Counted from the first letter of the stretch, positions 557-54,224 are shown. The stretch: 64,000 nucleotides of DNA from a virus (IMGVR_UViG_2778261161_000002), one strand, 5' to 3'. The notes: generated from the letters alone by a model not told the origin. Translations and numbers: made by a program.

Positions 557-883
557 ATGTTTGCAGATTATGAAAATCTGGCTGTAGTAGTCATAACATC
601 CCTACTAAGTGGAACCGGCGTATTCCTTCTCGGAGTTAGAGACGGGCGCATTTCTGCGTCCCTGCTCAATCTTGCGAGTGAATTGTTTACTGCGGTAACA
701 GCCGGGCTTGCGGGGTATGGGGTGGCGGTTAGCCAAGAATGGCCTGAAGGTATCATTTTCTGCGTTGTTCTGATTGCCAGTAACAACGGTAGTGAAATTT
801 TACAGGGCTTGAAGTCCAGAGCTAGTAACGTCTTGAATCTCTTAAGCGTAATAGCGAATGGGGGAAAAGGTGGAGAGAAATAA
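557..883 (+). CDS. Putative holin (LydA-like by size and position), 108 aa, three hydrophobic segments
   Basis: ORF track; hydrophobic segments VVVITSLLSGTGVFLLGV, LFTAVTAGLAGYGVAV, IIFCVVLIASN; first gene of operon divergent from invertase. Confidence 0.4.
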   Translation: MFADYENLAVVVITSLLSGTGVFLLGVRDGRISASLLNLASELFTAVTAGLAGYGVAVSQEWPEGIIFCVVLIASNNGSEILQGLKSRASNVLNLLSVIANGGKGGEK

Positions 884-1329
884 TGGGTAACTTTGGAAAT
901 TATTTCATTTTTATCATGGCATTTGTTGCCATCATTGACCGTTTCATTTTTCGTCGCAAGAGTGTTGAGATTTTGAGTATTGGTGACGCTGTAGTGAAAG
1001 AATCCGCTATAGCATTTCCTGTTTCGCTACGTGTTAAGCGAAGCTGGGTCAGCAATGCTCAAATCGAATATTGGTTGCAAGACCTGAAAAATCCATCTGT
1101 GGTTATTTCAGGGAAAACGCGACCAGTTGACGCCTCAAAACGCGGTGAGAGAGAAGAGTATTTGCTCATCGATACGAAATATCTTGAGCCAACGAAGTGG
1201 GATCTGAAAGTCACATTGACTAACGGTAACTGCCGACTGAATCCGCTTTATCGCATTTTCCCTATCAATGACTGCATAGAGCGCCAGTTTACGATCGAAA
1301 AGCGTGAAGGAGACTGGGATGTCAAATAA
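883..1329 (+). CDS. Hypothetical protein (LydB-like position), 148 aa
   Basis: ORF track; start overlaps stop of upstream ORF (ATGA coupling). Confidence 0.35.
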   Translation: MGNFGNYFIFIMAFVAIIDRFIFRRKSVEILSIGDAVVKESAIAFPVSLRVKRSWVSNAQIEYWLQDLKNPSVVISGKTRPVDASKRGEREEYLLIDTKYLEPTKWDLKVTLTNGNCRLNPLYRIFPINDCIERQFTIEKREGDWDVK

Positions 1330-1939
1330 GAATAATTATGTTCTTCTTAATTATGCTGAATTAAACGAAAAGGGGCTGGCAAAACTCGTCAAAGAAATCA
1401 GCAAAGGTGGTTACAAGATAGCGAGGGTGATCCCTGCAAGTAATGGCAGGAAGAAAGATGGGATCATGACGCGCACGTTTACCCTTATTGGTATTGATGA
1501 ACAGACAATGGAAGTTCAGGTTAACGATACCGGCGATATATCTGGGATCAAACTGAATGGTAAAACAGTACCGTTCAAGCCAGTAAAAACAATGTCGGCT
1601 TTGGGGCAATCTCTTGCGGCTTTATTTAATCGCGGAGCAACTTCTTTCCAGAAGTCATTAGCTCGAAAACTTGCTCGTGCAGCAAAAAATATTGATGACG
1701 GAAATAAGAAGCGGCAGGGAGTTAAATCTAACGCTCAGAAATTAGCTGAAGCGAAAGAATCACGTGATGCACTCCGTGAAGATATCGCTAATGCTAACGA
1801 CAAACTGTCTAAACTCCAGAGCAAGTCAGACAAAGTAATGCAAGATACGGGTAACGTTAAAGCTGCCTTGTCTCAGGAAGTAGCTAAGACACGTGCTCTT
1901 AAAGAAGAAATCGCGCGTCTGGAGGATGAGCATGATTAA
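1319..1939 (+). CDS. Hypothetical coiled-coil protein of dar-like operon
   Basis: ORF track; start moved to ATG at 1319 preceded by AAGGAG; K/A/E-rich coiled-coil C-terminus. Confidence 0.5.
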   Translation: MSNKNNYVLLNYAELNEKGLAKLVKEISKGGYKIARVIPASNGRKKDGIMTRTFTLIGIDEQTMEVQVNDTGDISGIKLNGKTVPFKPVKTMSALGQSLAALFNRGATSFQKSLARKLARAAKNIDDGNKKRQGVKSNAQKLAEAKESRDALREDIANANDKLSKLQSKSDKVMQDTGNVKAALSQEVAKTRALKEEIARLEDEHD

Positions 1940-3875
1940 CAATCCTTTACGAATTAATATTCAGTCTACTTTTGCTGATACGATCCCCGGCTATATGCCA
2001 AGTCGCTGGTCTTCAGAAGAATTAAGCGAAGATGACCTGATTTTTGAGGCGGCGACCTTAGAAGATATTGAGCTTGCCTATATGGGCAATGAAATTCTGG
2101 TTGTGTCTGACGAAGCTATGTTTGAGTCCATAACTACAACCAGAATTCGGTTAGCTCAAACAATGCGAGCTTTCGTCCGTGCGCTGAATCGTGGCCTGAA
2201 TGGTACGAATATTATGGCAGGGACTGATGAAGCTGGGACCGATGAAAATGGACGTAATTGTATTGGTGGTGCGATTATCGGTCGTGTACGTCGGGTAGCT
2301 AATATCCCTGTTTTGACCGCGCAGATACCGCTTACTGACGGGCAGAGTACAAGCATAATTTTCCACTCTCCAACAGCTGACGGGGCAAAAATAAAGAGTA
2401 ACGACGAGCTTGTTGCATTTCAGTTTTTACTTAATAAGCGTAACGTAACTCACGTTGTCGCCCCGATTGGTGGGAGAGATGTTTCTTTAAGCCAGGTATG
2501 CCAGGCGCTATCTAATTTGATTGAGCGTAACAGCGAAAAATTTAAGAAAGCAAAAGAGCGCCAGGACAAAATGAAGGCAGATATTGAGAGTTATCTCAAT
2601 GAAGCAGATAAACTGGCAGAAGAACGGTCAATAATGATTGATCAGGTGGACGTTGCGCAACGTGGGCTGACTGAAAAGCGTGCTGCTCTTACGGAGATGC
2701 AAAAAAAACTTGATGCCCAGAAAGCTATCAATGAGGAATTACAAGCAAAACGCGATAAATTGTTGTCTGCTAAAGGTGAAAAAACGAAAGAACGAGCGTT
2801 TAGTGACCAGCTGCGACATGTAAAACATAATCTTGCCATTGACGGAAAAACAGTGCTTGATAATGGCGCTGAAGTTAATTATGTCACGTCCGGCAGTGAC
2901 AATTTCGTTACGATAGTAGCACCTGAAGGTAAATTCAGTATTGATGCCAGTGCTGTCAAAGGAGGCAGTTTGGCAGATGCTGCAACCAAATTACTTAAAG
3001 CCTACCGAGAGCATAACGCAGATAAATATAAAGTTGATGTGTTACCAGGCCAGTTGGAAGACTCCGAACCACCACAGACAGACCCCGAAACGAACCCAGT
3101 ATTACAACCAGAGAGCCAAGATGTAGGTGAATACCACTATGCACTTCAATCTCGCCCGGCTGGTGTTGGTGCTGTTCCGGATGGAAATAAAGCCGTGCTT
3201 GATCGTCCTGACCAGGCTGATCAGTATTACGAATATGCTCGTCACGGTATCATTACGTATGACCGTAAACTGACAGATGAAGAAGTCAGCCAGTACGAGT
3301 TGCTTTATCTTCCTGATGAAGATGAGCTGAAAGATTTTGCAGGCCAATTGGTTGCGTCCAGCATGTCGAAACATATTGATGGCTATGTGGACCTGTTTGG
3401 CAGTGACCTGAAAACATTCAAGGCGCAAGTGAAAATTCTTTTCCGCAAAGCGTTTCCAAACGTGGCGTATCCACTTAGTGATGGGGAGAACCTTTTCATT
3501 ATGGACGTGTATAACGCCCTTCAAAATCATTCAAGCGAAGTAAAAACAGAGCATGTGGTTGAGCCAGAATCACAACCACAACCACAACCACAACCACAAC
3601 CAGCACCAGAACAGGAGTCGGAGCCAGAAGAAGCGGGTGAATCAGCAAGTGAAGCTGATCAGGAAGCAGATAAAGCGCTGGAGTACCTGAAATCCGTGCC
3701 GGAGCAGTTTACATCCCGCGATCTGACGGTCATCAGTGCTGAACTTGATCATGTGCAGGAAGCAGCAAACGCTCTAATCAGTGCAGGTCGATACGACGAG
3801 AACGAAGCCACTGTGGGTGCAGCAGTTGACTACCTGATCAATATTCTGGCTGAAATTCAGCAGGGAGGTGTTTAA
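1932..3875 (+). CDS. Large acidic protein with (QP)n linker, DarA-like by size and synteny
   Basis: ORF track; GGAGG upstream of ATG 1932; internal ESQPQPQPQPQPAPEQESEPEE linker; about 650 aa. Confidence 0.4.
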   Translation: MINNPLRINIQSTFADTIPGYMPSRWSSEELSEDDLIFEAATLEDIELAYMGNEILVVSDEAMFESITTTRIRLAQTMRAFVRALNRGLNGTNIMAGTDEAGTDENGRNCIGGAIIGRVRRVANIPVLTAQIPLTDGQSTSIIFHSPTADGAKIKSNDELVAFQFLLNKRNVTHVVAPIGGRDVSLSQVCQALSNLIERNSEKFKKAKERQDKMKADIESYLNEADKLAEERSIMIDQVDVAQRGLTEKRAALTEMQKKLDAQKAINEELQAKRDKLLSAKGEKTKERAFSDQLRHVKHNLAIDGKTVLDNGAEVNYVTSGSDNFVTIVAPEGKFSIDASAVKGGSLADAATKLLKAYREHNADKYKVDVLPGQLEDSEPPQTDPETNPVLQPESQDVGEYHYALQSRPAGVGAVPDGNKAVLDRPDQADQYYEYARHGIITYDRKLTDEEVSQYELLYLPDEDELKDFAGQLVASSMSKHIDGYVDLFGSDLKTFKAQVKILFRKAFPNVAYPLSDGENLFIMDVYNALQNHSSEVKTEHVVEPESQPQPQPQPQPAPEQESEPEEAGESASEADQEADKALEYLKSVPEQFTSRDLTVISAELDHVQEAANALISAGRYDENEATVGAAVDYLINILAEIQQGGV

Positions 3876-4243
3876 TGACCATCTCTGTTTTAGACCGCCT
3901 GAAATTAGGTAAAGAGCTATCAGATCTAATGCAGGCGCAGAAAACTGCGCCAGTATTGCAACGCGTCACCATTGGTAAGCAGATTGTTGATGTGATGCTG
4001 AAATTGGGCCTGGGGACTGCCGCGCAACCGGCAGCGGAACCGCAACAACAGGCTGATCCTGTTGTAGATGAAGTCCCTAAGATAGTGACTGACTTCCTGG
4101 GCGGTGTGTTCACAAAGTCCACACAAATGGAATTTATTGATGCGCTGCGTGGGATCTCAAACTATGTTGGCGAGTTCCTTACGTTGGAGCAGGCTAAAGA
4201 GCAGACCATAAGCTGGGTGAAAGCTAACGGTTATGCCGGGTAA
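3875..4243 (+). CDS. Hypothetical protein, 122 aa (DdrA-like position)
   Basis: ORF track; ATGA overlap with upstream gene. Confidence 0.4.
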   Translation: MTISVLDRLKLGKELSDLMQAQKTAPVLQRVTIGKQIVDVMLKLGLGTAAQPAAEPQQQADPVVDEVPKIVTDFLGGVFTKSTQMEFIDALRGISNYVGEFLTLEQAKEQTISWVKANGYAG

Positions 4244-4325: not shown

Positions 4326-5723
4326 TTGGAGTGTATTTTGAACAAATCAGTTACTTCTGCGCTTTCCGAGGCCGCAGATATTAACAGCGTCATTGCTCTG
4401 GTTTCTTCATTAGAGAGGAAAGAAACACACCTGGGGCGAAGTAGCTACGTAGTCACCAGCAAAGGTGCAGAGGTAAAGACGGCTTTTAAGGTCGTTGATG
4501 CCAGCAGTCTGATCATTTCGAACAACCTTGACGGTACGATTAACCCGGCCTTCCCGGAAGAACTCCAACCACGAGATCGTACCCGGCTATCCAGCAAACT
4601 CCAGGTTAACCGTATTGCCTCCAATTTACGCCCGGCACAATTAACGGATTCCGGTATGAGCAGCCACGGAGCGCCTATAGTTGGTCCGGACAACGTTGTT
4701 GAATCCGGCAACGGAAGGAGTATGGGTATCTGGCGTGCCTATGAGCAAGGACAGGCGGATGAGTATCGCCAGTACCTGATCGACCATGCGAAAGAGTTTG
4801 GTCTGAATCCTGACGAAATTTCGCAAATGTCTATGCCCGTACTGGTGCGAGAAAGACTCACAGATGTAGACCGCGCTCAATTTGCCCGCGATTCAAACAT
4901 TAGCGATCTGCAAGAGATGGCAGCAAGTGAAAAAGCGTATGCGGATGCGCAATTTCTCACTGAGAGCGTCATGGCGCTATTTAATCCTTCAGATGATGGA
5001 AATCTGCTGGCGCGGTCCAATGATGCGTTTATTCGTGCGTTTTTGCGCGAAATTGGCGATACAGCGACGGCAGGCTTGCTTACTGCCGATGGGCGTCCCA
5101 CGAAACAGCTTATCGATCGCATCCAGAATGCAATTTTTGCCAAAGCGTACAAGGATGAAAGGCTTGTTCGGCTGGTGTCGGAAGAGCCAGATCCGGAAAT
5201 GCGTAATATCCTGACCGCATTAAATACGGCAGCCAGCGATTTTGCGCAAATGCAGTCGCTGTCTGGCGACGCTCACCATGACGCAGTAACAGGCTTAGTG
5301 GACGGTATAGAGCAGGTTAATGGCCTGGATACACAGGCGATAGCAGCACTCCAGGAAGCAATTAATCTTGTACGTGAAGCCAAAGACAACGGTCAGGCCG
5401 TTGAAGAAGTGATCGCCCAAAGGGGGTTATTCGGCGACAGTACACCGGAAGCTGAGGCATTGGCGCTATTCATCGTAGCAAATAATCGCAGTGCGAAGCG
5501 TATGGGGGCAGCATTCAAAAAAATGGCGCAAAAAATCAACGACGAGCTGACTCATAAACAACAGGCATTGGGCGATATGTTCGGCGGTGGCGATGTTGAT
5601 CTGCGTCGTATTTTGTCTGCTGTATCTGATGAAATTGAGGGTGAATTTGGCGAAGGGAAAGGTCTGAACTTTGCTATGTTTGAAAATTCTACGGATCTAA
5701 ATAATTGCCGTACGGAAAACTAA
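4326..5723 (+). CDS. ParB/sulfiredoxin-like nuclease-domain protein, 465 aa
   Basis: N-terminal region ELQPRDRTRLSSKLQVNRIASNLRPAQL ... VVESGNGRSMGIWRAY resembles ParB N-terminal domain; non-ATG (TTG) start implied by ORF track. Confidence 0.45.
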   Translation: MECILNKSVTSALSEAADINSVIALVSSLERKETHLGRSSYVVTSKGAEVKTAFKVVDASSLIISNNLDGTINPAFPEELQPRDRTRLSSKLQVNRIASNLRPAQLTDSGMSSHGAPIVGPDNVVESGNGRSMGIWRAYEQGQADEYRQYLIDHAKEFGLNPDEISQMSMPVLVRERLTDVDRAQFARDSNISDLQEMAASEKAYADAQFLTESVMALFNPSDDGNLLARSNDAFIRAFLREIGDTATAGLLTADGRPTKQLIDRIQNAIFAKAYKDERLVRLVSEEPDPEMRNILTALNTAASDFAQMQSLSGDAHHDAVTGLVDGIEQVNGLDTQAIAALQEAINLVREAKDNGQAVEEVIAQRGLFGDSTPEAEALALFIVANNRSAKRMGAAFKKMAQKINDELTHKQQALGDMFGGGDVDLRRILSAVSDEIEGEFGEGKGLNFAMFENSTDLNNCRTEN

Positions 5724-5787
5724 ACCAACCGCTGAAATCACATACTGATTATGCTGCCGCAAAACTGGAAACGATTTGCGGTGATTC

Positions 5788-7470
5788 ATGGCAACGAAAG
5801 ACAAAAACAAAGGCTTTCTGTCAGCATTGAAGAAAGCCTTCAACGGTGGTGATGTTACGCCCGCCGATCCGGTCGTTTTTACGAGCGGACATAGTGTCGT
5901 TGCTCGTTCCGGCCTGTCTGCTTTACGTCCAGGCATCCTGGGGAGCAATAGCGATGGCATGACGAGTGAGGCAGATTCAATTTCTTTATCCGCTGAACTG
6001 CCCGGCGAGCGCCTGCAAAAGTACAACATCCTGGAAACGATGGCTAAAAGCCCGACTATCTCGACGGCTTTAAACATTCACATTGCACATGCGCTTGCGC
6101 CTTCAAAAAAAACCGGACAGGCATTCATCCTTTCGCCAAAGGATGGTTCCGATGCCGAGGCAGTAAGTAGATGTGAAGAGTTAACCGCTGATTTGGGGGC
6201 GATGATTAATGACGGACTTCCTTCATGGGCCATGATCATGGCGATCTTTGGGGTGTCTTATGTCCGACCTTATGCTGAACAGGGCAGGGGGATAACAGGC
6301 ATTGAGTCCAGTTATTACACTCTGCCACATTTCGTCCAGGAATTTTATCGCGGTAGCCAGCTGGTTGGATTCAGTGGTGATTACATCCTGGATACGCATA
6401 GTTTGCGCAGAGTAATAACCGAACCGTGGAATCTGGTTTCCATGAAAAATCCCTATTGGACGCCACAGCATAAAGTTATTCCGGTTAGCTACGGCACAAA
6501 AGGGTACTCACTGTTAAGTGAGCAGGCTGATAAGCCGTTAATGGAGACGCAGAATTACGGAACTTCATTCCTGGAATACAGCTATGAACCTTACCTTAAT
6601 TTATGTGCTTCGCTCGCCGCGCTGAAATCAACGCGAAATAATGCAGCCAAAATTGACCGCCTGATTGCTCTTACGACGAACACACTGGACCCGGTTAATG
6701 CGGCGAACTATACGCGTGGCGTCAGCCAGGCATTGAAGCGTCATAGTGACCTGGTGGCGCAAAGGTCGATTAATGCCAACGCTATTCCGACTGTGCTTAA
6801 CCATCTGATACCTGTTATGGGAGACGGGAAGAACGGCATCACCATTGATACGCAATCCATACCCGCAGATATCAGTGGTATCGAAGACGTTATGTTTCAC
6901 CTCCGGCAGCTTGCTGCAAGCCTCGGCATTGACGCAACAATGCTTGGCTGGGCTGATCAGATGAGCGGAGGGCTTGGAGAAGGCGGCTGGCAGCAAACTG
7001 CTATCCAGGCTGCATTGCGTGCGAACTGGATCAGACAGGCCGCCCAGCGAACTATTTATCGGCTTCTGGACATTCACCTCGCTTATAAATACGGCAAGGT
7101 TTACACCGAAACAAACCGCCCTTATGACGTGCAATTCAACTCAATGAACACTGCTATCCAGGAAGAGGAAAACCGGGAACTGGATGCACGCGCCAACTTT
7201 GTTGCTGTCATCTCCCAAATTATGGACCAGATCCAGAACAACCCGAAACTGGCTGGTAGTGACGCGTTTATGCGTTATCTGTTCACTGAGCAGTTGCACA
7301 TCGACGATGACACTCTCAACACCATGATCAAAGAGTTTAAGGCGAATGAATCAGAGCAAAACAACGAGCATGGTATGTACGAATCCGCGCCGTTGTCGTC
7401 CGGTGACGATCCGGAAAACTGGACGCCAGAACAGTTAATAAACTTTGCAAAATTTGTGATGAGCAATTAA
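5788..7470 (+). CDS. Hypothetical large protein, 560 aa (possible virion/morphogenesis-associated)
   Basis: ORF track; no motif I can name with certainty. Confidence 0.45.
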   Translation: MATKDKNKGFLSALKKAFNGGDVTPADPVVFTSGHSVVARSGLSALRPGILGSNSDGMTSEADSISLSAELPGERLQKYNILETMAKSPTISTALNIHIAHALAPSKKTGQAFILSPKDGSDAEAVSRCEELTADLGAMINDGLPSWAMIMAIFGVSYVRPYAEQGRGITGIESSYYTLPHFVQEFYRGSQLVGFSGDYILDTHSLRRVITEPWNLVSMKNPYWTPQHKVIPVSYGTKGYSLLSEQADKPLMETQNYGTSFLEYSYEPYLNLCASLAALKSTRNNAAKIDRLIALTTNTLDPVNAANYTRGVSQALKRHSDLVAQRSINANAIPTVLNHLIPVMGDGKNGITIDTQSIPADISGIEDVMFHLRQLAASLGIDATMLGWADQMSGGLGEGGWQQTAIQAALRANWIRQAAQRTIYRLLDIHLAYKYGKVYTETNRPYDVQFNSMNTAIQEEENRELDARANFVAVISQIMDQIQNNPKLAGSDAFMRYLFTEQLHIDDDTLNTMIKEFKANESEQNNEHGMYESAPLSSGDDPENWTPEQLINFAKFVMSN

Positions 7471-7483
7471 CCGGAGGGAAATA

Positions 7484-8482
7484 ATGCAATCACTGAATAC
7501 TGTTACGGATCGCTTCTCCCTGGTAGAGAAAATCCGCAAACACACACCGCAGAACAACCGAAATTATGTCATTCAGTCGGTACGAGACACATTCAACTCG
7601 CCAGAAACAAAAGAGCGTATCGCGCTGGGTGAGATGTATGGTTATTACGGTCATGGTCGCCGGGCGATGCACTATAACAAAACGAAAAGCCTGAACTTGC
7701 CGGAAGTCTCTGTTGTGATGGTAGATGGGAAGCCTGTTGTATTGGAGAACGTGCCGTCAAACAGGACTATCGACATTTCGATTGACGACAACGGCATTGT
7801 TACGCATACGCAGGAAATACTGGATACAGACACCGGGCGTATTGTTCAGGGCATGATTAATTCTGGTGCTGGTGGTTGGTCGTGGGCTACATCTGGTCCA
7901 GATTCATCGGTATCCCTGGTAAAGTCTTTCCACGGCTTTGATTACGTAACTGTGCCTAACTATATCAGCCTCGACAAGAAAAGCCTGATGCTTGAATCAG
8001 CAGAAGAGCGCGATGCGGCTATTCATGCAGCACTTATCGAACAAGGTTTTACCGATAACGCTGCTACGGATCTGGTTCACCACTTTTCAGCAATGAAAAA
8101 TCAGCAAGCCATGCTCGAATCTGCACATCGTGAAGCCCTGGAATCAGAATTGATGCTCCTTGAAGTGGAAAACATACAGCTTCGAGATAAGCTGCGCGCT
8201 CAAACAGCGATGATGGAAAGCCAGGGGGAAAATGCAAAGCAATGCCGCCGGATTTTGCGTGACGCTATCCAGGAAATGCCTGTTTTTATCAGCGCAGAAC
8301 AGCGCCGGGCGCTCTGCCGTATGCAGTCTGAAGATGATGCCCGCATAGTGGCTGCGATGCTTGAATCTCTTGGGGCAAATGCTACTTATGGCTTACCGGT
8401 ATCAGGCAAGAAAGAACCAGAGTTATCACCGAAGGAGAACAAAAACACCACCCCGTTACTCTTCGTTTCTAGAAGGGGGTAA
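7484..8482 (+). CDS. Hypothetical protein, 332 aa
   Basis: ORF track; RBS GGAGGG upstream; coiled-coil C-terminal half. Confidence 0.45.
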   Translation: MQSLNTVTDRFSLVEKIRKHTPQNNRNYVIQSVRDTFNSPETKERIALGEMYGYYGHGRRAMHYNKTKSLNLPEVSVVMVDGKPVVLENVPSNRTIDISIDDNGIVTHTQEILDTDTGRIVQGMINSGAGGWSWATSGPDSSVSLVKSFHGFDYVTVPNYISLDKKSLMLESAEERDAAIHAALIEQGFTDNAATDLVHHFSAMKNQQAMLESAHREALESELMLLEVENIQLRDKLRAQTAMMESQGENAKQCRRILRDAIQEMPVFISAEQRRALCRMQSEDDARIVAAMLESLGANATYGLPVSGKKEPELSPKENKNTTPLLFVSRRG

Positions 8483-9708: not shown

Positions 9709-9929
9709 ATTAATTTGCTGTTTCTAAATCGGAATGTATGATCTGCATCATCGACTGAAGTCATCCATTGCTGAAATTTTTAGTTGATCTTCCATGTTTT
9801 CAGGCTTATATTCATGCCGTCGTAGCAAATTCTGCGACCAGGTTTGACAGCCTGAATGTTAGTGCGGACAACCGCAGATTTCCGATATTGCGGTATTTTT
9901 GTGTCCGTAAACCGCGTTACGCCCGAATT

Positions 9930-10030
9930 ATGGTGGGGCGTGATGGGGAGGCTTCGGCCTGCTGGTCTCACTAACGCCAGTCTGTCAACCCTGTCACGTC
10001 CTGCCACCTGTTTGACAGCGGGTAGCAGGT
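9930..10030 (+). ncRNA. Candidate c4-like antisense RNA region of immI module 1
   Basis: Direct repeats GTTTGACAGC at 9842 and 10010 flank a complementary CTGTCAAC at 9982, upstream of icd-like ORF; architecture as in P1 c4. Confidence 0.3.
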
Positions 10031-11196: not shown

Positions 11197-11220
11197 CCCC
11201 GGCCTGGCCGGGGCTTTTTT
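11197..11220. terminator. Bidirectional terminator CCCCGGCC-tg-GCCGGGG + T6
   Basis: Hairpin and T-run between convergent genes. Confidence 0.75.
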
Positions 11221-11705
11221 CATGCCTCATTAGTTGAGGTTGCTGCGTCTCCGACTGGTAACAGAGCGGTATTGTGTGGTTCGCCAGCAGGCCAGCGATA
11301 GCCAGACACTCTTGATGTTGGGAATGCGCGAATATTAACCGCATCCCCCTGGTTCCCACCCAAGACAAGCAGATCGCCATTGGCGCGGCGTCCGACAACG
11401 AAGCCTACGTGCCCACCGCCTACGCGGGTAAATACAACGATACATCCGTATGCCGGTGTATCTAATTTCTCGCCCCAATCCAGATAGGATTTTGCCGACT
11501 CAAATCTTGTTGAGCGGATGCCTACACGTTCCAGCATTGCACCGACAAATGCTGCGCACCACGGCGTTTCATCGTCTTTAATTCCGCCGCGCTTGATGTC
11601 GCGCCAGAACTGAACGATTTCAGGGTTGTGTTTAGCGCCTTTTATTTCAGTCAGGCCAATGTGCTTACGGGCTTCAATTAGCCAGCGAGGTTCAATGTTT
11701 GCCAT
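11220..11705 (-). CDS. CHAP/NlpC-P60-like peptidase (TIGR02594-type phage protein), 161 aa
   Basis: Motif PWCAAFVGAML and downstream HVGFVVG typical of Cys-His amidase. Confidence 0.55.
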   Translation of the reverse strand: MANIEPRWLIEARKHIGLTEIKGAKHNPEIVQFWRDIKRGGIKDDETPWCAAFVGAMLERVGIRSTRFESAKSYLDWGEKLDTPAYGCIVVFTRVGGGHVGFVVGRRANGDLLVLGGNQGDAVNIRAFPTSRVSGYRWPAGEPHNTALLPVGDAATSTNEA

Positions 11706-11856: not shown

Positions 11857-14800
11857 TTGGACAAACTACTTCATTCAATCAGTGAAGCCTCCAGCTTAGG
11901 CGAACTGATTGAAATTGTTAGTCGGTTGCATAAATTACGTGCTGTTGCGACCTTTGGCGTCAGGAAAGCCGATGGCGTCAGTATTCAGAAAACACGCCGG
12001 GCAGCAAACAATGCCGCAGTAAATCTTCTTAATTCCCTTCCGCCCGGCTTCGATGGGGCGAAATTAACTGACGAACAACGTCAGATTCTTGCTGGGTATA
12101 CCGGTGAAGGCGGCCTGACAGATGGTGAGGGCAGCCAATACGAATACTACACGCCACAGTTTATGGCTGAAGGTATATGGGATCTGTTTGCTGACTACGG
12201 TATTGATGGCGGGCACGTACTGGAACCATCAGCGGGCACAGGTATTTTCCAGGAGACAAAACGGCAGGGCATGATAATGACCAGCGCCGAACTGTCTCCG
12301 ATTTCTGGTCGAATAAACCAGCTTTTGCACCCGGAAGACGATGTGAATATCGGGGCGTTTGAGGCGCTGGCGGCGAAAGATGCAATGTATGACCACGCTG
12401 TTGGTAACGTACCGTTTGGTGAAGGGCGTTCCGGCGTTGCCGGGCTTGATCCGGCATATGCAAACGAGAAGAACGTTGGCAATTACTTTGTGCTGCGCAC
12501 GATCGACAAGGTTAAGCCTGGTGGGCTTATCGTATTGGTGGTGCCAAATGGCATGACCGATGGTACGAAATATAAAAAATTGCGCGATAAAGTCAGCCGT
12601 AAAGCGGAATTTTTGGGCGCGCATCGTATGCCTTCCGGTACGTTCAGTGAATCAGGTACAGATACCGTGGTGGACGTATGGGTATTGCGTAAACACCCGG
12701 AAGCCTTCCTGGAGATGATCCCCGATACGGATGATTCGACGCTCAAATCGGCAAACGTCCTTTGGGATACCTTCCTCAAAGGAAAATGGTTTACAACCGA
12801 AGGGAAGCGATTTGTTTACGGCGACATGGAACGTACCAGCTTCCGCAATACCCTGGTGGTGAAAAAAGACGGTCGTGTATCCAATGAGTCGATGAAAACC
12901 GCGCTATCTCGTCGCTTTGATAGTCGCATCAATTGGGATTTGCTCGGCGTAACTACTCAGGCATGGCAGGGCGCGAAAGTGGGCGATAAACGCCTTGTAG
13001 GCGGTATCTGGCATGAGTTTGATGGTCTGAAATGGGTTAAGGACACGACAACCAAATCCTCCGCGCTTGATGTAAGTCGATATGGTGTTTCGACGTTTGG
13101 CGATCTGCAGATCGCGTTCCAGTCAACAAACGGGATTCTGGCTTTGTCATGGGACCAGATATCGGCGATCGCGTCCGACTATCCATCGGTTGTCAGTGAT
13201 GAAGTGGCAGCAATGATTCGCTTTGCTGGCAAGCAGCGAGAAAAAGACAGGGAGCGCGTTATGCGCGGTGCACTGATAGGTCAGTTGATCAACAAGGCAC
13301 TTGATTTGCGTAACCTGGGGGTGAACGTTGATGACAAACTGGCAGATGCATCCCGCCTGGCGGCAGCAGAAGTTGCGAAGTATGGACCACCGCACGCGAT
13401 TAAGCTGAATGGGCTTGCTGAAGCTGGCGCTAAAAACTGGATGACGTTCACTGGCAATGTGAAACAGGATGGTTCCACTTCTGACCTTCTGGCAGGGCGA
13501 CTTGATGTAACGGATGGTGCTGCCGGTATTGACTTTACGCGTCCTGAACAAGTGATAGCACATCTTTTTAGTGATGTAGCCCTTAATCCTATAACGCTGG
13601 GCGACTTTCGTGAGGCGTTTGCTGGTGAACTGCCAGAGGACGACGACGCGGCCCTTGAATACCTGGCGAAATTTGATGATATCGCTATTGATGGGTATGG
13701 CTGTCTGCTGCCGATGGACCGCGCCACCAGCGGCGATGTTGCAACCAAAACAGCACTGCTGGTGGGTTGGCGTGATGCGTCAACAGGTGAGCAGAAAGCG
13801 AACTTTGAGCGTCAGTTGGCGAAAATCGAAGAGAAACGCATTTTCACGCCACTAAATAAAGTCACCGTTAATCTGAACGCCCGCTGGCTGGATCGCCGCT
13901 TGATAAAAGAGTTCCTGGCAGAGCAGGGCTATGACGAGTTTAAGTACACTGAACCTGATCTGAAGGTCGTCGATGGCATTCTGGTATCTCCGGACGATTA
14001 CGAAGGTAAGGACGGGGTATTTACCGGCTATCAGCTACGAACCGTAAACGGCAAAAACGGGAATGAGTTCAAGAAGGCCAACAATAAAGACGGCTTCCTG
14101 AACCAGTTAGAAAACTACCTGAACGGTGTTAAACCGCGTGGGCAGAACGCTAACGAGTACCTGGATAAAATTGCTCAACTGGAAGTTAGCTTTAACGACT
14201 GGTTACGCACTCACCCGCAGGCTGATCAGATAGCCCGCGAGTATAACGACGCATTCAATGGTTTCATTCCGTTCACGCATTCTGACGCACCGCTTGGCCT
14301 GGAAGGGATTAGTGGAAAGCGCATTCCTCTGACTTATCAGAATGAAGAAGTTCGGCGCTTGTCAGAAGATGGGCGCGGCATCATGGGATTTGGTACCGGG
14401 CTGGGTAAAACCACGACCGCGCTTGCGCTTGAGGCGTATAACTTCGAAACAGGTCGCACTAAACGCACGTGTATTGTTGTTCCGAAGGCGGTTTATCAGA
14501 ACTGGTATCACGAGGCACAGAGTTTCTACAGTGCTGATGCCTTCGCCAATATGATGTTTATCGGTTTGGATGAAGTTCGTGATGACAGCGGAAATATTCT
14601 GACCGCGCCGGTGCTTGATGAAAATGGCGAACCACGCCTCGACAGTAACGGGCAGCCTCTTACCAGAAATGTTGTGAAAGAGTCCGCCAGCGCCGTTATC
14701 GTTCAGCGCATGAACATGATCCCGTCGTCAAATTGGCGAACGGTCATCATGACAAAAGAACAATTCGCGTCTATCCCGCTACGAGAAAAAACCATCGAGG

Positions 14801-17800
14801 AGAACTCACAGCAAGCTGTCTTTAATGCTGTGGAAATGGGGCGTCTTGACCTGGCGTCTGGCAAACACCGTGATGCACAGAAGAAGAACAAGATTAAGGA
14901 TCAGGCCGCGAATACCGGTACAACGAAGAAGCAGAATATCCCGTACTTTGAGGATATGAACTTCGATAGCGTGATTGCCGACGAGGGGCATAACTACCGC
15001 AACTCCTTTAATGCCGGGCGTGAAGCGGGACAACTGGCATATTTGCCTAACCCGGCAGTATCCAAGATGGCCCGCGACATGGCTGTAAAAGCTGCGTACA
15101 TGATGAAACGCAACAACGGACGTGGTGTAGTCATGCTGACGGCAACTCCGCTGGTGAACAGTCCGATTGATGCCTTCAACATGCTGTCTACTGTCATTCC
15201 GCAGGAAGAGTGGATGCGCATGGGCATCATTACGCCTGATGATTTCGTTCGTGTGTTTGGCAAAACAGCCACAGTTCAGGTCCAGAAAATTTCCGGGGAA
15301 GTGGAAGAGAAGCAGGGGCTGGTGGGCTTCCAGAACCTTGATGGCCTGCGTGGTATTTTCCATCGTTGGACCACTCTGAAGACTGCCGCAGATGTCGGAG
15401 CGACGGTTAAAATTCCCGACATCATCGAGAACACCTTGCAGATCCCGATGACAGGGGAGCAGGAGTCTGCTTATGAAGAACTTCGTAAGCGTGCTCAGGA
15501 GTTAAGTCGCAATGATGAGCTGACAGTCGATGAAAACGGGCATATCACTAACGACAAACCGGATGATTTCATCTTCTCCATCATCCGTGACATGGACAAG
15601 GTTGCTATAGACCCGGATCTGTATGCCAGTGCGATTACATTCCAGTTCCCCGTTGAGCTTGCAGACCAGGTAAAAGCTATTGCTGATGCCTTGCCAAAAG
15701 TAGCTGGTGGTAAAGTGGCAGATGATGTTGATGAGGCCGAGGAAGACGGCGCTGGCGGGCTGGTCAGTACGCGTACCAGCAAGGTAGTGAAGACCGCTTT
15801 TAGTGAACATCCGACGCATGTTGAAATACGTGCCAGCATTGAACTGGAAGCTGAAATACTGAAGGCCATTGCGGCTGCCGGTATTGATATGCAGCAGGTA
15901 TCGCACCCCATCCCGCCGAAGTATGCCGCGCTGATCGAAAATCTTCGTGAAGGTCTGAAGAACGGTAAGCAGATCGTCTTTATTGATGAAAAAGCCCAGC
16001 ACCAGAAGCTGCGCCGTATTATCGCCAGTGCACTGCAAATGCCGGAGCAGGAGATTGGCATTATCAATGCGACGACAGTTAGCCAGGCTGGCGGCATCAA
16101 GCTGAAGAAGGTGAATAAGCCGACCGAACCTACTCCAAACAAAAACGGTGAATACAAAGAAGGGGCATGGGAAACCTACTACAGCAAACTTGCCCAATAT
16201 GAGGATTATCTCTCAGCTAAAAATGATGCTGGCCTTGAGGGCATGGAAGGTATTGCCGCCGACTATAACGAAGGTCGCACGCGCATCATAATCTGTAACA
16301 AGAAGGCTGAAGTAGGTATTAACCTGCACATCGGGACAACCGATATCCACCACCTGACACTACCCTGGACACCAGCCAGTATCGACCAACGAAATGGGCG
16401 CGGTGCGCGCATAGGTTCACCGCAAGAGAAGGTCAATGTTCACTACTATTGTGGCAAAGGCACATTCGACGACTTCCGTCTGGATACGCTGAAACGTAAG
16501 AAAGACTGGATCAAGATGGTGATGACCTCCGACATGTCAGAGATCGCCAATGGTGATGTGGATGATGCTGATGAACGCGCCATTATGCTGGCGGCAAACC
16601 CGGAAGAACGCCGCGCAATCATGGCTCGCCAGGCGCAAGAGCGTGAAGAACGTCTGAAACTGAAAGCACAGCGCGAGGCCAACAATGCTCTCGATATCTA
16701 CCTGAAAGCGGCAAACGCCGCCGGAAAAGATATCGGCATGATGGAGACAGAACTGAAAAGCGCGATGGAACAGATAGAGTATTACCAGCGCAATCTTGAC
16801 GACCTGATAAAAGCGGGTACGAACAGGAATGGGCAAAAATACGCGCTTGAGCAGTTGAGTAGCTACAGAAAACGTGCGCGGGTGCTGCGGTTTGCGATCA
16901 CCAGGGCAAAAGACGCGGATACCATAATGAAACGCTCTCGTGGTGATGTGGAGCGCGCTATTAAGTCTGGTGTGCTGGATATCAGTATCGATGTTATTCA
17001 GAACCCACAGGAATATATGCGCACTGACAAGAATATCCTGTTGCATAAAGGTAGTTATTACCGTGCAGTCATTGATGATCGCGAAACAACAGCGATTGTC
17101 CGGGTGGAAAAAATTGACGGTGAAAAAGCACAATACATCTGTCGTATCGCCTGGCTGGATAGAGCAAGTCGTTACGCTCGATCACCGGGGTCAATCGTTA
17201 CATTGCCGTTTGACTCTGTGATTGAAGCGGTAACTTTTGAAGAGGGGGTTGCTGAATCGCGCGCAACGGCTGCGCGTGGTGTTCAGTGCCACCAGCTATC
17301 AACAATACTTACTCGCGATCAGTTCTATGATGCTATTCGCAATGGGGTAATGAATGTTATTGCTGGTAAACCTGGTAATGCATGGGGCGGTGGATCAGCT
17401 ATTAAATACTGGGCATATCGCACAGAAGATGGTCAGATCGCGCTGTCATCGGCCTATGATGGCGTGATAGGCCAAAAAATCGGGCGAGCATCGGATATAG
17501 CACCTGAACGATGGATATATCCTGATGGCAACGACGAGGCGCTGAAGCGTGAAGTGGCAAAAATACAAGCCAGTGATAACCCGCTGAATATCGTGGACGG
17601 AGAGGGATTCCTCCAGGCATTGTATGGGTATGATTACATCCAGGGAATGCAGGCATGGGGCGCACAGGCAACGATGGATGATGTTGCCAAGGAGTTCGAA
17701 AACTGGATGGCTGGGCGTGGTCTGTCAGGTCGTTCGCTTAATAAAGTCACTTCTGAAGATATTCTTAGCTTGTTCCGTAAACCGTCCGGAGAAGGTCTGG

Positions 17801-18693
17801 AATCATTCTGGAGGACCGTGCTGGCATACCGTTTATTCCAGGGCAGGATGAAAGCCTTTAGCAATATCGATGATATTGAACGGATGTTTAATCAGGTCAA
17901 GATCGCGAAAATTAAGGCGAAGATCGAAAAAACACGTTCTGCGCTGGTGGCCTGGCGCGATGCATTGTTTGAGCAATATAAATCACTCAGTGATGCAGAT
18001 GGATGGGCGGCGCTGGAACAGTTGGCGAATAATGGGGTAGATGGGGCGAAACTCGCCATTGTCCAGGCTGATAACCCCCTGGAATCACCGGCAGCACAGT
18101 GGATTAAGGTGGGGGCTGTCATCAATGCATTTGATGAAAAACACATTAGTAAGGACGATTTTGCTGATGCTGTTTCTGTTAATCGCCTGGTAGAAATGGC
18201 TACCCGCCGCGCCCGTGAGTTGAAAGATGGCGACTATGTGAATGAGTTGCCGGATACGCTCAAATCGGCAACGTGGCAGGACTATGTATCGCTGAAAAAC
18301 GGCGGGGCCACTGAATCAGAGATCGCGGAAAGGCTTGAGCAGGCTGAAAGCAAAAGAGAAGAGCAGGCGGCAGTGGCTGAAGCCAGAGCTGATGAAGCGG
18401 CAAATGATGACTATATCATTGTGGTTAATGATAAGCCTATTCGCGCTAAGGCGCGTGTTCGCGGGCGCTGGTGGAGCGTCAGCGAGGACGTTGGCGCGGT
18501 TTATCTCATTGCCGACCAACCAGGTTCCTCGACAATACGGAACGCCAAAGACGCGATTAAGAAGATTGGCGGGCGTTTCTGGAATTTTGAAGTGAATCCG
18601 GTCGCGGATGTGGACTTTGACCGTCCGGCGTGGATGGTATCTACGCGTTACTCGGTAGATGAACTGCGTAAAATAATCGCCGATGCGGCTTAA
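11857..18693 (+). CDS. darB: Giant 2278-aa DarB-like protein: N-terminal N6-adenine MTase domain + SNF2/DExH helicase domain
   Basis: LEPSAGTGIF (motif I) and GNVPFGEG (motif IV-like); GFGTGLGKTTT Walker A; VIADEGHNYRN box II; DQRNGRGARIG motif VI; size matches P1 DarB. Confidence 0.7.
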   Translation: MDKLLHSISEASSLGELIEIVSRLHKLRAVATFGVRKADGVSIQKTRRAANNAAVNLLNSLPPGFDGAKLTDEQRQILAGYTGEGGLTDGEGSQYEYYTPQFMAEGIWDLFADYGIDGGHVLEPSAGTGIFQETKRQGMIMTSAELSPISGRINQLLHPEDDVNIGAFEALAAKDAMYDHAVGNVPFGEGRSGVAGLDPAYANEKNVGNYFVLRTIDKVKPGGLIVLVVPNGMTDGTKYKKLRDKVSRKAEFLGAHRMPSGTFSESGTDTVVDVWVLRKHPEAFLEMIPDTDDSTLKSANVLWDTFLKGKWFTTEGKRFVYGDMERTSFRNTLVVKKDGRVSNESMKTALSRRFDSRINWDLLGVTTQAWQGAKVGDKRLVGGIWHEFDGLKWVKDTTTKSSALDVSRYGVSTFGDLQIAFQSTNGILALSWDQISAIASDYPSVVSDEVAAMIRFAGKQREKDRERVMRGALIGQLINKALDLRNLGVNVDDKLADASRLAAAEVAKYGPPHAIKLNGLAEAGAKNWMTFTGNVKQDGSTSDLLAGRLDVTDGAAGIDFTRPEQVIAHLFSDVALNPITLGDFREAFAGELPEDDDAALEYLAKFDDIAIDGYGCLLPMDRATSGDVATKTALLVGWRDASTGEQKANFERQLAKIEEKRIFTPLNKVTVNLNARWLDRRLIKEFLAEQGYDEFKYTEPDLKVVDGILVSPDDYEGKDGVFTGYQLRTVNGKNGNEFKKANNKDGFLNQLENYLNGVKPRGQNANEYLDKIAQLEVSFNDWLRTHPQADQIAREYNDAFNGFIPFTHSDAPLGLEGISGKRIPLTYQNEEVRRLSEDGRGIMGFGTGLGKTTTALALEAYNFETGRTKRTCIVVPKAVYQNWYHEAQSFYSADAFANMMFIGLDEVRDDSGNILTAPVLDENGEPRLDSNGQPLTRNVVKESASAVIVQRMNMIPSSNWRTVIMTKEQFASIPLREKTIEENSQQAVFNAVEMGRLDLASGKHRDAQKKNKIKDQAANTGTTKKQNIPYFEDMNFDSVIADEGHNYRNSFNAGREAGQLAYLPNPAVSKMARDMAVKAAYMMKRNNGRGVVMLTATPLVNSPIDAFNMLSTVIPQEEWMRMGIITPDDFVRVFGKTATVQVQKISGEVEEKQGLVGFQNLDGLRGIFHRWTTLKTAADVGATVKIPDIIENTLQIPMTGEQESAYEELRKRAQELSRNDELTVDENGHITNDKPDDFIFSIIRDMDKVAIDPDLYASAITFQFPVELADQVKAIADALPKVAGGKVADDVDEAEEDGAGGLVSTRTSKVVKTAFSEHPTHVEIRASIELEAEILKAIAAAGIDMQQVSHPIPPKYAALIENLREGLKNGKQIVFIDEKAQHQKLRRIIASALQMPEQEIGIINATTVSQAGGIKLKKVNKPTEPTPNKNGEYKEGAWETYYSKLAQYEDYLSAKNDAGLEGMEGIAADYNEGRTRIIICNKKAEVGINLHIGTTDIHHLTLPWTPASIDQRNGRGARIGSPQEKVNVHYYCGKGTFDDFRLDTLKRKKDWIKMVMTSDMSEIANGDVDDADERAIMLAANPEERRAIMARQAQEREERLKLKAQREANNALDIYLKAANAAGKDIGMMETELKSAMEQIEYYQRNLDDLIKAGTNRNGQKYALEQLSSYRKRARVLRFAITRAKDADTIMKRSRGDVERAIKSGVLDISIDVIQNPQEYMRTDKNILLHKGSYYRAVIDDRETTAIVRVEKIDGEKAQYICRIAWLDRASRYARSPGSIVTLPFDSVIEAVTFEEGVAESRATAARGVQCHQLSTILTRDQFYDAIRNGVMNVIAGKPGNAWGGGSAIKYWAYRTEDGQIALSSAYDGVIGQKIGRASDIAPERWIYPDGNDEALKREVAKIQASDNPLNIVDGEGFLQALYGYDYIQGMQAWGAQATMDDVAKEFENWMAGRGLSGRSLNKVTSEDILSLFRKPSGEGLESFWRTVLAYRLFQGRMKAFSNIDDIERMFNQVKIAKIKAKIEKTRSALVAWRDALFEQYKSLSDADGWAALEQLANNGVDGAKLAIVQADNPLESPAAQWIKVGAVINAFDEKHISKDDFADAVSVNRLVEMATRRARELKDGDYVNELPDTLKSATWQDYVSLKNGGATESEIAERLEQAESKREEQAAVAEARADEAANDDYIIVVNDKPIRAKARVRGRWWSVSEDVGAVYLIADQPGSSTIRNAKDAIKKIGGRFWNFEVNPVADVDFDRPAWMVSTRYSVDELRKIIADAA

Positions 18694-23125: not shown

Positions 23126-23202
23126 GATGGTGTAGCTCAGTAGGATAGAGCAGCAGCCTTCTAAGCTGTCGGTCGGTGGTTCGAATCCATCCACCATCGC
23201 CA
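23126..23202 (+). tRNA. tRNA-Arg (anticodon TCT, reads AGA)
   Basis: Manual fold: acceptor GATGGTG/CACCATC, D-arm GCTC..GAGC, anticodon loop CTTCTAA, T-arm GGTGG-TTCGAAT-CCATC, CCA encoded. Confidence 0.8.
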
Positions 23203-23204
23203 AT

Positions 23205-23279
23205 GCCGGTTTAGCTCAGTTGGTAGAGCGCCTGCCTTGTAAGCAGGATGTCAGCGGTTCGAGTCCGTTAACCGGCACC
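23205..23279 (+). tRNA. tRNA-Thr (anticodon TGT)
   Basis: Acceptor GCCGGTT/AACCGGC, anticodon loop CTTGTAA, T-loop TTCGAGT. Confidence 0.8.
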
Positions 23280-23734
23280 GACACAACAGGTAAGGGTATT
23301 TTGCGACGTCGGAGATCGCCGTGCTTGGCAGAGGGTTCGAATCCCTACGAAGTACCCTTACCGTTGTGATGAAGTGCAGCTCTTTGAAGCAACCAGAAGA
23401 TAAGCATCTGGCTTCACAACATAAACCGCATGAACGACCAATAAACGGTAGTCCGTATGGAGAACACCCCGTTGAGGAAGAGGCCTGGCCGGAACCGTAA
23501 CCGGCACTACAACGTTGAGAACACTGGCGTAACGGGGTCATATCCCAATCTATGAATAAATGTTGCGTTGCAGCGTGACAACCAGTGTTCTCAACATTGT
23601 GGTGAATGCGCAGGCTGATGCGCGAAAGACATTGCAGCTATTGCGGAAAAGAGCTGTTCGGCGGGGCAATTAAACGCCCGTGAGAGTCTGAAATAACCGC
23701 AAGCCGGAGATCAGCACCGGTCGCCACAATCAGC

Positions 23735-23821
23735 GGAGAGTAGGGGGCATGGTGCTCAAGCGGTCTTGAAAACCGTCCCATTGCGCAAGCGATGATGGTT
23801 CGATTCCATTACTCTCCGCCA
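23735..23821 (+). tRNA. Probable class II tRNA, anticodon TGA (Ser-like), long variable arm
   Basis: Acceptor GGAGAGT/ACTCTCC, anticodon arm GCGGT-CTTGAAA-ACCGT identical in loop to E. coli tRNA-Ser(UGA), T-arm GATGG-TTCGATT-CCATT, CCA; D-arm atypical. Confidence 0.55.
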
Positions 23822-24442
23822 TCGCAACGTTAAGAGTATTTGGCTAATTAAGCGAATGCCGGAAGCAGAACCGGATCATCAAATGCGTACAGGCGTCATC
23901 GCCGCCCAGCCAGCCAAGTGCTCTTACCATTGCGGTGAATGCGGCTAAGCGCACGCGGAACAGTTAAAACAATCCTCCTTAGTGGTTAAGTCAAACATCC
24001 CGGCGTTAATTGTTAACTGGTTAACGTCACCTGGAGGCACCAGGCACCGCAATCTAATAAAGTTTCAAGCAATGGGGTTTTTGTTGTCAGACTTCAGATA
24101 TAGATGGTTGTGGAAGGAGAGCCTGTACATAGTGCAGTTATTTCTTCCGCTATTTGTCTGCTTTGTCATGCTTCCTGAGCTGAAATACGCAATTTCAGAC
24201 ACTTTAAGCACTATCGTTACTTTTGTGTTTTATCTTTACTTTGATTACTTATTGAGCACTAAAATCAATGAATTATCCGAGGAAATGCAAGGTGGCTGTA
24301 AGTGATGGATTTTTGGGCGTTTGCCGATAAGAACCCTGGTTGGACATTTTTATTTTTGCTGGTGGTTGCATATGGGGTCGAGCAAGCGGCTAAAGCCTTA
24401 CGCGGTTCTGGCAAAAAGCGTAAGCGGAATTAACAGTAATCT

Positions 24443-24518
24443 GGCCCTTTAGCTCAGTGGTTAGAGCAGGCGACTCATAATCGCACGGTCACCGGTTCAA
24501 ATCCGGTAGGGGCCACCA
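24443..24518 (+). tRNA. tRNA-Ile2-like (anticodon CAT, AUA decoder) or tRNA-Met
   Basis: GGCCCTTTAGCTCAGTGGTTAGAGCAGGCGACTCATAATCGC... near-identical to E. coli ileX from memory; T-arm ACCGG-TTCAAAT-CCGGT; CCA. Confidence 0.8.
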
Positions 24519-49251: not shown

Positions 49252-49879
49252 TTTTAAGTTGAATTGTAAATTTCTCCGATGTACATTCACTACCGATTGG
49301 CACACCGGTCAACTTTTTGAGACAAACTGTTTAGTTTTTCGTATTATTGCCCCCGCCATACCTATGGCGGTGCAATATAGGTGGCTGAAAAGCCCCCGTT
49401 GACTCACGGTGTTCCAGCCTTTATTGCGCCGCCACCAGACCGTGGAACAGTCGATGGCGGCTCCGAAAGCAAGGAGTCACTACACTATGAACAACTACAG
49501 TCTTTTCCCATCACTCGTCGTCCACCACTCACGCGATAATCTGCATTCTTTATTCGCGCTGGGGGAGTCAAAATGACTGTTCGCTACCTCAACTTTCAAA
49601 TCAAGAACATTACTGGCGGTTGCTATGACTGGTTTGTCACTCTCGGAAAAGAAGTGATTACCGGGAAGCTGGATGAAGTGAAAGCTAAAGCAATGGCCTA
49701 CGCCTGCAAGCAAGCCCGGAAGAAATCCGCCAAAGCATAAAATACTGACTGTTGCGCCCTGGCATTATCGTGGGGTATATTTCTACGGCACCTTAGAAAA
49801 ACGGGTGCCGGGATTGGAACCCCGGATAATGCAAAAGGCGACACAGACGCCGAAAGCGTCTTTTCTTGTGTCATGCCAT

Positions 49880-50030
49880 CGCACAGCCATACGTAGCGTT
49901 TAGCTCAGAGATCAATGGTAGTGCTGGCTGGGCTGCCGAAAGGCAGGCCGGTTCCCTTTTGCGCCGGTAGTTCCAACCCAGTCAGTGCTACCGCCATTGA
50001 GATTGGAACCTCACGCGGTAGCTCCTTAAA
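49880..50030 (+). ncRNA. Candidate c4-like antisense RNA region of immI module 2
   Basis: GATTGGAACC at 49812 and 50001 with partially complementary GTTCCAACC at 49970; tRNA-like TAGCTCAG segment. Confidence 0.3.
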
Positions 50031-53911: not shown

Positions 53912-54224
53912 TCACATTAGTAGCTTTGTTAACTCCCTCAATACCAGGTAGAAGAGTAACAAAAATATTGACGCAAGTATTTGCGTGGTCAATGAGGCGT
54001 TCATAAACAGATCAATAAGCTTTAACAATTCTAGAATAACATCCATGTCATTCACTCCGTTTAATTTTTAATCTAATGCCAGCAAATGAAGCTGGCCCCC
54101 GCATAAAGATTAATGAAAGTCACTTGTCACCAGTGAGGGGATCCCTGAACTGGTGGCCTGTCTGTTTCTCGCATTTCACACCCTGCATACAGTTTCCCCC
54201 AGGTTATGACTGAGAGGCTTTGTT

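Follow-up and report, generated by a model that had tools for sequence, protein, structure and literature searches.

The gene and its identity

The subject of this analysis is a single long open reading frame (ORF) in a 64,000-nucleotide stretch of viral DNA (IMGVR_UViG_2778261161_000002), called the window below, which we assign to darB, a gene known from phage P1. The ORF begins with TTG, has a GAGGGGG ribosome-binding site 7 nt 5' of this start, and comprises 2278 codons plus a stop (6837 nt, 10.7% of the window), in agreement with the sequence-only reading of this DNA, which had described a giant DarB-like methyltransferase-helicase encoded by one ORF covering more than 10% of the window. 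The probability of 2278 stop-free codons arising by chance is ~(61/64)^2278, or ~e^-109, indicating that the ORF is not a fortuitous open frame.

A megablast search of phage genomes matched the whole gene (100% coverage) to D6_15 of Escherichia phage D6 at 98.7% DNA identity; the GenBank label of D6_15 (ASR76325.1) reads "defense against restriction; similar to P1 gene darB". Both proteins are 2278 aa long and are identical at 2258 of these positions, and the likeness extends to the neighbouring genes. The 91 nucleotide differences between the two genes lead to 20 amino-acid changes, most of the differences being synonymous, which indicates purifying selection. P1 DarB itself (YP_006479.1, 2255 aa) is collinear with the ORF product from end to end (BLASTP 1516 bits, 946 of 2370 positions identical, 40%) and shares its domain order, the motifs GNVPFG, GLGKTTT, DEGH and QRNGRG, and its context, with ulx 3' and hdf-darA-ddrA-ddrB 5', which bears out the DarB-like identity proposed earlier. 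Overall identity to the P1 protein is, however, just 40–43%, falling to ~20% in the C-terminal 700 aa, and the N-terminal targeting region is poorly conserved. The PHROG family phrog_1685 is matched across aa 1–2278, that is, end to end. As judged from these comparisons, the ORF is almost certainly orthologous to P1 darB, the element being a P1-like plasmid prophage of D6 type from E. coli/Salmonella. The gene is already known, being a near-identical copy of an annotated phage D6 gene and a clear orthologue of P1 darB.

Many database entries for this family are partial or split, including one plasmid that carries two 'SNF2-related protein' genes under the match, and such entries could be taken to mean that a methylase gene and a helicase gene, separate in reality, had been joined into one long ORF by sequencing error or frameshift. 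We attach only a negligible probability to this explanation and rejected it: the same 2278-aa ORF is present in D6, at least 80% of the gene is found in 93 complete E. coli genomes, the 2255-aa P1 DarB is collinear, and the median length is 2172 aa among the 157 family members that reach 1900 aa or more.

Elements of this type are well represented in plasmid collections. Ninety-seven PLSDB plasmids cover at least 80% of positions 1–25000 of the window, the best being E. coli CP057047 at 99.3%, and a darB copy covering at least 80% of the gene occurs in the 93 genomes mentioned above among 5426 complete E. coli genomes surveyed, almost always on plasmids of ~90–95 kb. D6-like plasmid prophages have also been described in Salmonella (PMC6799933). 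In PGAP/RefSeq annotation darB is named 'SNF2-related protein' or 'DEAD/DEAH box helicase family protein' (e.g., NZ_AP018804.1, 82118–88954).

Domain organization of the protein

The product is one intact polypeptide in which an N-terminal helical module is followed by an HsdM/TaqI-like N6-adenine methyltransferase, a conserved middle region, an SNF2 ATPase and a variable tail (Table 1). All motifs quoted in the sequence-only reading were located, NVPF at aa 184–187, GLGKTTT at 848–854, DEGH at 1042–1045 and QRNGRGARIG at 1511–1520, and further motifs were recognized at aa 80–86 (GYTGEGG), 97–100 (YYTP), 123–129 (EPSAGTG) and 1095–1098 (TATP).

Conservation of these features was assessed across the family. 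Single-segment word-indexed searches returned mostly fragments of P1 and D6 DarB; the diversity of the family came from exhaustive HMMER and profile searches. An exhaustive HMMER search with aa 1–420 yielded 295 representatives of clusters formed at 50% identity (E<1e-30), most of them giants of 2000–2600 aa, and 144 of the 295 were aligned. The same order of motifs was found in 141 of the 157 long homologues, and Walker A, DExH, TATP and Q..GR..R were each present in 150–155 of them. In the N-terminal module, which AlphaFold2 models with helices at aa 2–10, 14–25, 43–60 and 72–79, conservation among the 144 representatives is 98% or higher at the glycines G83, G85 and G86; the LPD36 module to which this GxGU motif belongs has been described previously (PMC5512222).

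The match of the methyltransferase domain to Pfam is borderline. The Pfam N6_Mtase model scored 20.2 bits against the whole protein (cut-off 20.4) and 21.4 bits when aa 101–400 were scanned alone, while homologues of 63% and 39% identity scored 28.8 and 37.8 bits, respectively. A 24-sequence family profile searched against the PDB matched the type I HsdM proteins StySJI, EcoKI M and 7eew. An AlphaFold2 model of aa 1–830, built with 59 homologues, had a mean predicted local distance difference test (pLDDT) score of 86.8, mostly >90 over aa 100–320, and every one of its best Foldseek matches (E 1e-8 to 1e-5, probability 1.00) belonged to the gamma class of N6-adenine DNA methyltransferases: HsdM 7eew, BsaXI 8w0p, 2okc, 3ufb, PacII, EcoKI M 2y7c, M.BseCI, M.TaqI 2adm, CamA, DrdV and LlaBIII. 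For 7eew, 8w0p, 2okc, 2y7c and 2adm, which are among the top matches, E values were 1e-8 to 1e-6. These predictions confirm, at the level of a model, that aa ~96–330 adopt a Rossmann methyltransferase fold with the motif order X (TP), I (xPxxGxG), IV (NxPF). The N6-adenine methyltransferase-like domain of the sequence-only reading thus found support, a methyltransferase fold being present in the N-terminal region by both structure prediction and fold search.

Motif IV of this domain departs from the canonical (D/N)PP(Y/F/W), as had been pointed out from the sequence, where NVPF was contrasted with NPPF/DPPY. The departure is real; it is not peculiar to the window gene, since P1 DarB carries GNVPFG and N-[V/I]-P-F is the norm of the family. 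Motif IV was NVPF or NIPF in ~135 of the 144 representatives (~94%) and NPPF or NPPY in six, with little or no variation at N184, P186 and F187; the TP motif, the G127 and G129 that bind S-adenosylmethionine (SAM), and F168/E169 were essentially invariant in the same set. By these alignments N-[V/I]-P-F, and not NPPF, is the motif IV signature of the DarB clade, which goes beyond the published descriptions consulted. The motif is compatible with catalysis though non-canonical, because NVPF fits the (A/S/N)(L/I/V)P(Y/F) class of the KsgA/Erm rRNA dimethyltransferases, which is catalytically competent there; in those enzymes, a small hydrophobic residue in place of the first proline opens the pocket so that an adenine already methylated at N6 can re-bind (PMC3814359).

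The second enzymatic unit had been read as a full SNF2/DExH helicase core, an assignment that Pfam upholds: SNF2-rel_dom (47.3 bits, cut-off 24.9), Helicase_C (24.9, cut-off 23.5) and ResIII (24.4, cut-off 22.5) all scored above their cut-offs, and the family profile finds the SNF2-family chains SMARCAD1 and SNF2L2. This core is the best-conserved part of the protein, with 60–68% identity to P1 DarB, compared with 50–55% in the methyltransferase and 29–46% in the middle region. The middle region (aa 331–820) gave no Pfam match, is modelled confidently by AlphaFold2, and was detected in 109 of 162 long family members. Pfam families PF28555 and PF28554, listed for homologues, lie outside the Pfam set scanned here. 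Neither enzyme has lost its catalytic residues in this sequence, and these residues are conserved throughout the family.

P1 DarB is the archetype of the methylase-SNF2 'polyvalent protein' dyad of Iyer et al. 2017 (PMC5512222), and the protein described here shares with that dyad an LPD36-like GxGU module, an EcoKI/TaqI-like methyltransferase with a TP motif, and a SWI2/SNF2 ATPase with helical inserts. Motif IV is given there as NPP(Y/F), whereas ~94% of the DarB-proper clade sampled here has N-[V/I]-P-F. The best structural matches for aa ~96–330 are type I HsdM subunits and the methyltransferase modules of type IIB, IIL and ISP enzymes (7eew, 2okc, 2y7c, BsaXI 8w0p, DrdV 7lo5, LlaBIII 4xqk), which have the same gamma-class motif order. 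Sequence identity to these relatives is 12–21%, and they carry NPPF or NPPY (StySJI 'NPPFG') where DarB has NVPF; DarB, in addition, is without an HsdS partner, a recognizable target recognition domain (TRD) or a nuclease.

These resemblances bear on a different function, in which the gene would encode a plasmid-borne defence or restriction-modification-like enzyme, of type ISP-like or DISARM-like character, that protects the lysogen and has no part in antirestriction. The combination of a methyltransferase and a superfamily 2 (SF2) motor in one chain does resemble type ISP enzymes, with LlaBIII among the fold matches, and there are partial NCBIfam matches to the helicase regions of DrmD, DpdE and ZorD. 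The latter are sub-threshold, scoring far under the cut-offs (46 vs 610 bits), and membership of these families was therefore rejected. Pfam scans of the protein revealed no nuclease domain, and the domain order is unlike that of type ISP enzymes: there it is nuclease, motor, methyltransferase, TRD, whereas in DarB the methyltransferase precedes the motor and LlaBIII matches via its methyltransferase module only. The gene is, moreover, embedded among head-morphogenesis and dar genes in a synteny kept in distant relatives. A defence enzyme is for these reasons very improbable.

The C-terminal tail is the fastest-changing part of the protein. Its identity to P1 DarB is ~20% beyond aa 1600, its 718 residues contain 12 of the 20 substitutions relative to D6, and in single-pass searches the final 380 residues were detected in the nearest relatives alone. 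Iterative jackhmmer searches, on the other hand, showed the whole tail to be homologous across 124 family members including P1, so that the tail is a family-wide but fast-diverging module without an informative structural match. Like the motif IV signature, this picture of the C-terminal third goes beyond the published descriptions consulted. AlphaFold2 models aa 1440–2278 (mean pLDDT 71.4) as hairpins of long helices, a small beta-barrel, a stretch of helices and, at the end, an alpha/beta domain of ~90 aa. The stretch of helices includes, at aa ~2040–2150 (17974–18306), a lineage-specific insert that is present in P1/D6-type proteins, gapped in ~92% of other family members, and modelled at low confidence (pLDDT 35–45).

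The Dar module and other features of the window

All six Dar components known from P1 are, by homology, present in the window (Table 1). DdrB is the best conserved of them, with 64% identity to P1 vs 33–46% for the other Dar proteins, although at 465 aa (995 aa in P1) it consists of the N-terminal ParB-like half only; the C-terminal half of P1 DdrB, annotated as 'possible metallopeptidase', is absent from the window protein. The ddrB gene nearly abuts the portal gene (5723–5788), whereas the D6 record (4787–5932) has two extra hypothetical genes of ~1 kb between ddrB and prt, orf24 and orf23, which the window element is without. This difference is an indel polymorphism among D6-like elements.

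Table 1. Coordinates of darB, the predicted regions of its product, and the neighbouring genes in the window
Feature	Coordinates	Strand	Basis
lydB	883..1329		34% identity to P1 LydB; PHROG 'lysis determining protein'
hdf homologue	1304..1939	+	phrog_1620 'Hdf-like antirestriction'; Pfam DarA_N 63 bits; 39% identity to P1 Hdf
darA homologue	1893..3875	+	Pfam DarA_N 136 bits, DarA_C 67 bits; 39% identity to P1 DarA
ddrA homologue	3875..4243	+	phrog_1855 'DdrA-like anti-restriction protein'; 33% identity to P1 DdrA
ddrB homologue, short form with ParB-like domain	4326..5723	+	Pfam ddrB-ParB 144 bits; 64% identity to P1 DdrB aa 2–442; 96% to D6 orf25
Portal (prt)	5788..7470		50% identity to P1 Prt
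Head protease (pro)	7484..8482		44% identity to P1 Pro
darB, whole ORF (orthologue, almost certain)	11857..18693	+	ORF call, D6_15, P1 DarB, phrog_1685
N-terminal helices, aa 1–95; capsid-targeting region in P1, and LPD36 module with GYTGEGG (GxGU motif)	11857..12141	+	AlphaFold2, conservation, PMC5512222, PMC9024508
Predicted gamma-class N6-adenine DNA methyltransferase domain, aa 96–330 (YYTP, LEPSAGTGIF, FE168–169, NVPF 184–187)	12142..12846	+	Pfam, profile, Foldseek
Middle region, aa 331–820, family-conserved, without named domain; small beta modules and helical bundle	12847..14316	+	AlphaFold2, conservation
SNF2-type SF2 ATPase core with large inserts, aa 821–1560 (GLGKTTT, DEGH, TATP, QRNGRGARIG)	14317..16536	+	Pfam
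Fast-evolving C-terminal tail, aa 1561–2278	16537..18690	+	AlphaFold2, P1/D6 comparison
ulx homologue, 144 aa; DarB packaging partner in P1	18730..19164	+	46% identity to P1 Ulx; phrog_1629 'Ulx-like anti-restriction' E 2e-59

In P1, darB is divergent from prt-pro; in the window its divergent neighbour is instead a gene at 11220–11705 (-) for a 161-aa peptidoglycan hydrolase, whose PHROG match is to the lysozyme portion at the C-terminus of a baseplate-hub/tail-lysozyme family, and prt-pro lie 3–6 kb upstream on the same strand as darB. An 86-kb Thaumasiovibrio contig carries a distant relative in which prt, pro, darB, ddrB and darA have stayed together; the Dar module is therefore ancient in P1-like phage-plasmids.

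Transcription signals were sought by pattern. A scan for sigma-70 promoters and terminators around darB gave no more than the shuffled expectation. The P1 late-promoter consensus AAGTKACTW-N4-TANNAT, derived from six annotated P1 late promoters, had four matches in the window, not above chance. The only exact match in the window, AAGTGACTT-N4-TAATCT at 54107–54125 (-), may be a genuine Lpa-dependent promoter.

The Chi sequence (GCTGGTGG) is strongly over-represented, with 45 sites in 64 kb (28 on the + strand, 17 on the - strand) vs ~2 expected. Seven Chi sites lie inside darB, at 13724 (-), 13758, 15318, 15703, 17289 (-), 17943 and 18467; P1 has likewise been reported to be Chi-rich, with 11 Chi sites in its darB (PMC11109961). 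A scan of the window darB for EcoKI, EcoBI and EcoAI sites found none.

Rfam searches identified a C4 antisense RNA at 9926–10011, with an a1/b1 target element at 9806–9858, upstream of icd/ant, and a second C4 antisense RNA at 49911–49998 that adjoins an isrK-like small RNA match at 49788–49866. The two C4 loci suggest two immunity-type antisense control regions. A tRNA cluster at 23126–24518 (+) comprises Arg(TCT), Thr(TGT), Ser(TGA) and Met(CAT). The first of these is Arg(UCU) by ARAGORN and by its anticodon loop, CTTCTAA; it is labelled Asn in the D6 record and in PMC6799933.

Predicted packaging and possible modes of antirestriction

What is known of DarB function comes from P1, in which the protein is a 250-kDa internal head protein present at ~40 copies per virion; its first 30 aa are enough to direct a reporter to the capsid, the incorporation of DarB is aided by Ulx and DdrB, and the protein counters EcoK and EcoB (PMC9024508). 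Loading of the P1 head begins with Hdf and DarA, followed by DdrA, DdrB, DarB and Ulx (PMC12810830), and Dar protection operates only in cis, on DNA of the same head (PMC12707154). The concept is shared with T4 IPI* and other capsid-delivered anti-restriction proteins, which are likewise targeted to the head by their N-terminus and ejected with the DNA against host restriction (PMC9024508). T4 IPI* is, however, a small inhibitor with no sequence or fold relationship to DarB, a 250-kDa two-enzyme protein. In the proposal of Iyer et al. for the methylase-SNF2 dyad, the methylase would travel over the injected DNA on the SNF2 motor (PMC5512222).

By extension from P1, we propose that the DarB of the window would be made late and loaded into the procapsid by its N-terminus together with Ulx, after Hdf/DarA, DdrA and DdrB, reaching tens of copies per head, and that it would exit the head along with the DNA. 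On the entering DNA the SNF2 motor would translocate along the duplex using ATP, and the attached methyltransferase would modify adenines with SAM, or the motor might clear or block type I enzymes; protection from type I (EcoK/EcoB-type) restriction would be limited to DNA of the same head. As an overall account, the combination of a darB orthologue, P1-derived packaging and this inferred mechanism is highly probable, a judgment weighted to the identity of the gene. Taken separately, the translocating methylase, a hypothesis for P1 DarB too, is the likeliest of the mechanisms considered, though we hold it only tentatively.

Several observations weigh against this account. The mechanism of DarB has been termed undefined, and neither methylation nor ATPase activity has ever been demonstrated biochemically for any DarB (PMC11109961). 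In the same study, plasmid-borne darB was found to relieve EcoKI restriction via its DNA, through Chi and EcoKI sites, and not via the protein. Virion packaging and antirestriction by the D6-type DarB we infer from experiments on P1 only, and just ~9 of the first 30 residues (~30%), predicted to be helical, are identical to those of P1 DarB. In the consensus scan of the window, the sequences upstream of darB and of the lyd-dar operon gave no match to the P1 late promoter, and the C-terminal ~700 aa gave no informative match in structure searches. Finally, a single methyltransferase would need to protect the differing EcoK and EcoB sites, and to do so quickly.

The last point would be eased if protection did not come from methylation. 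The SNF2 ATPase could strip or stall type I complexes, or outrun their translocation, with the methyltransferase domain serving as a DNA- or adenine-binding anchor; cis protection against two specificities, EcoK and EcoB, is easier to account for if methylation at specific sites is not required (PMC12707154, PMC9024508), identity to P1 is highest in the SNF2 core, and the SNF2 relatives RapA and DISARM DrmD appear as partial matches. The SAM-binding and catalytic residues of the methyltransferase are, however, as strictly conserved as the ATPase motifs in the 144–157 diverged homologues, which is unexpected of a mere anchor, and we consider that the motor acting by itself is an unlikely, if serious, explanation.

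A protein that does no catalytic work might also protect. DarB could coat the entering DNA as a passive shield, an occlusion hypothesis reviewed in PMC12707154, or its HsdM-like domain could mimic HsdM and titrate HsdR without turnover. The closest solved folds are indeed the HsdM subunits of type I enzymes, and tens of copies are packaged per virion (PMC9024508). Yet ~40 copies are too few to coat 90 kb of DNA, and a soluble decoy would act in trans, whereas Dar acts only in cis (PMC12707154). Pseudoenzymes, moreover, usually lose their catalytic motifs, and those of both enzymes are kept here. The strict conservation of both catalytic centres in a very diverged family speaks more for an enzymatic mechanism than for a passive shield or a mimic, and shielding or titration is therefore improbable.

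One consequence concerns annotation: as ~100 complete genomes are annotated by standard means, neither the methyltransferase half nor the Dar function can be seen, so that the Dar context is easily missed. As a finding, the gene adds little, being the annotated darB of a well-sampled phage-plasmid lineage. Capsid-targeted giant proteins are also of interest as protein-delivery vehicles (PMC9024508). Returning to the translocating methylase, the motif IV signature raises the speculative and distinctly improbable idea that DarB might be a motor-driven, low-specificity DNA adenine methyltransferase that accepts N6-methyladenine or makes N6,N6-dimethyladenine. If true, N6,N6-dimethyladenine would be a DNA mark unreadable to type I enzymes, and the match to particular host systems or capsid partners would be determined by the fast-evolving C-terminal tail.

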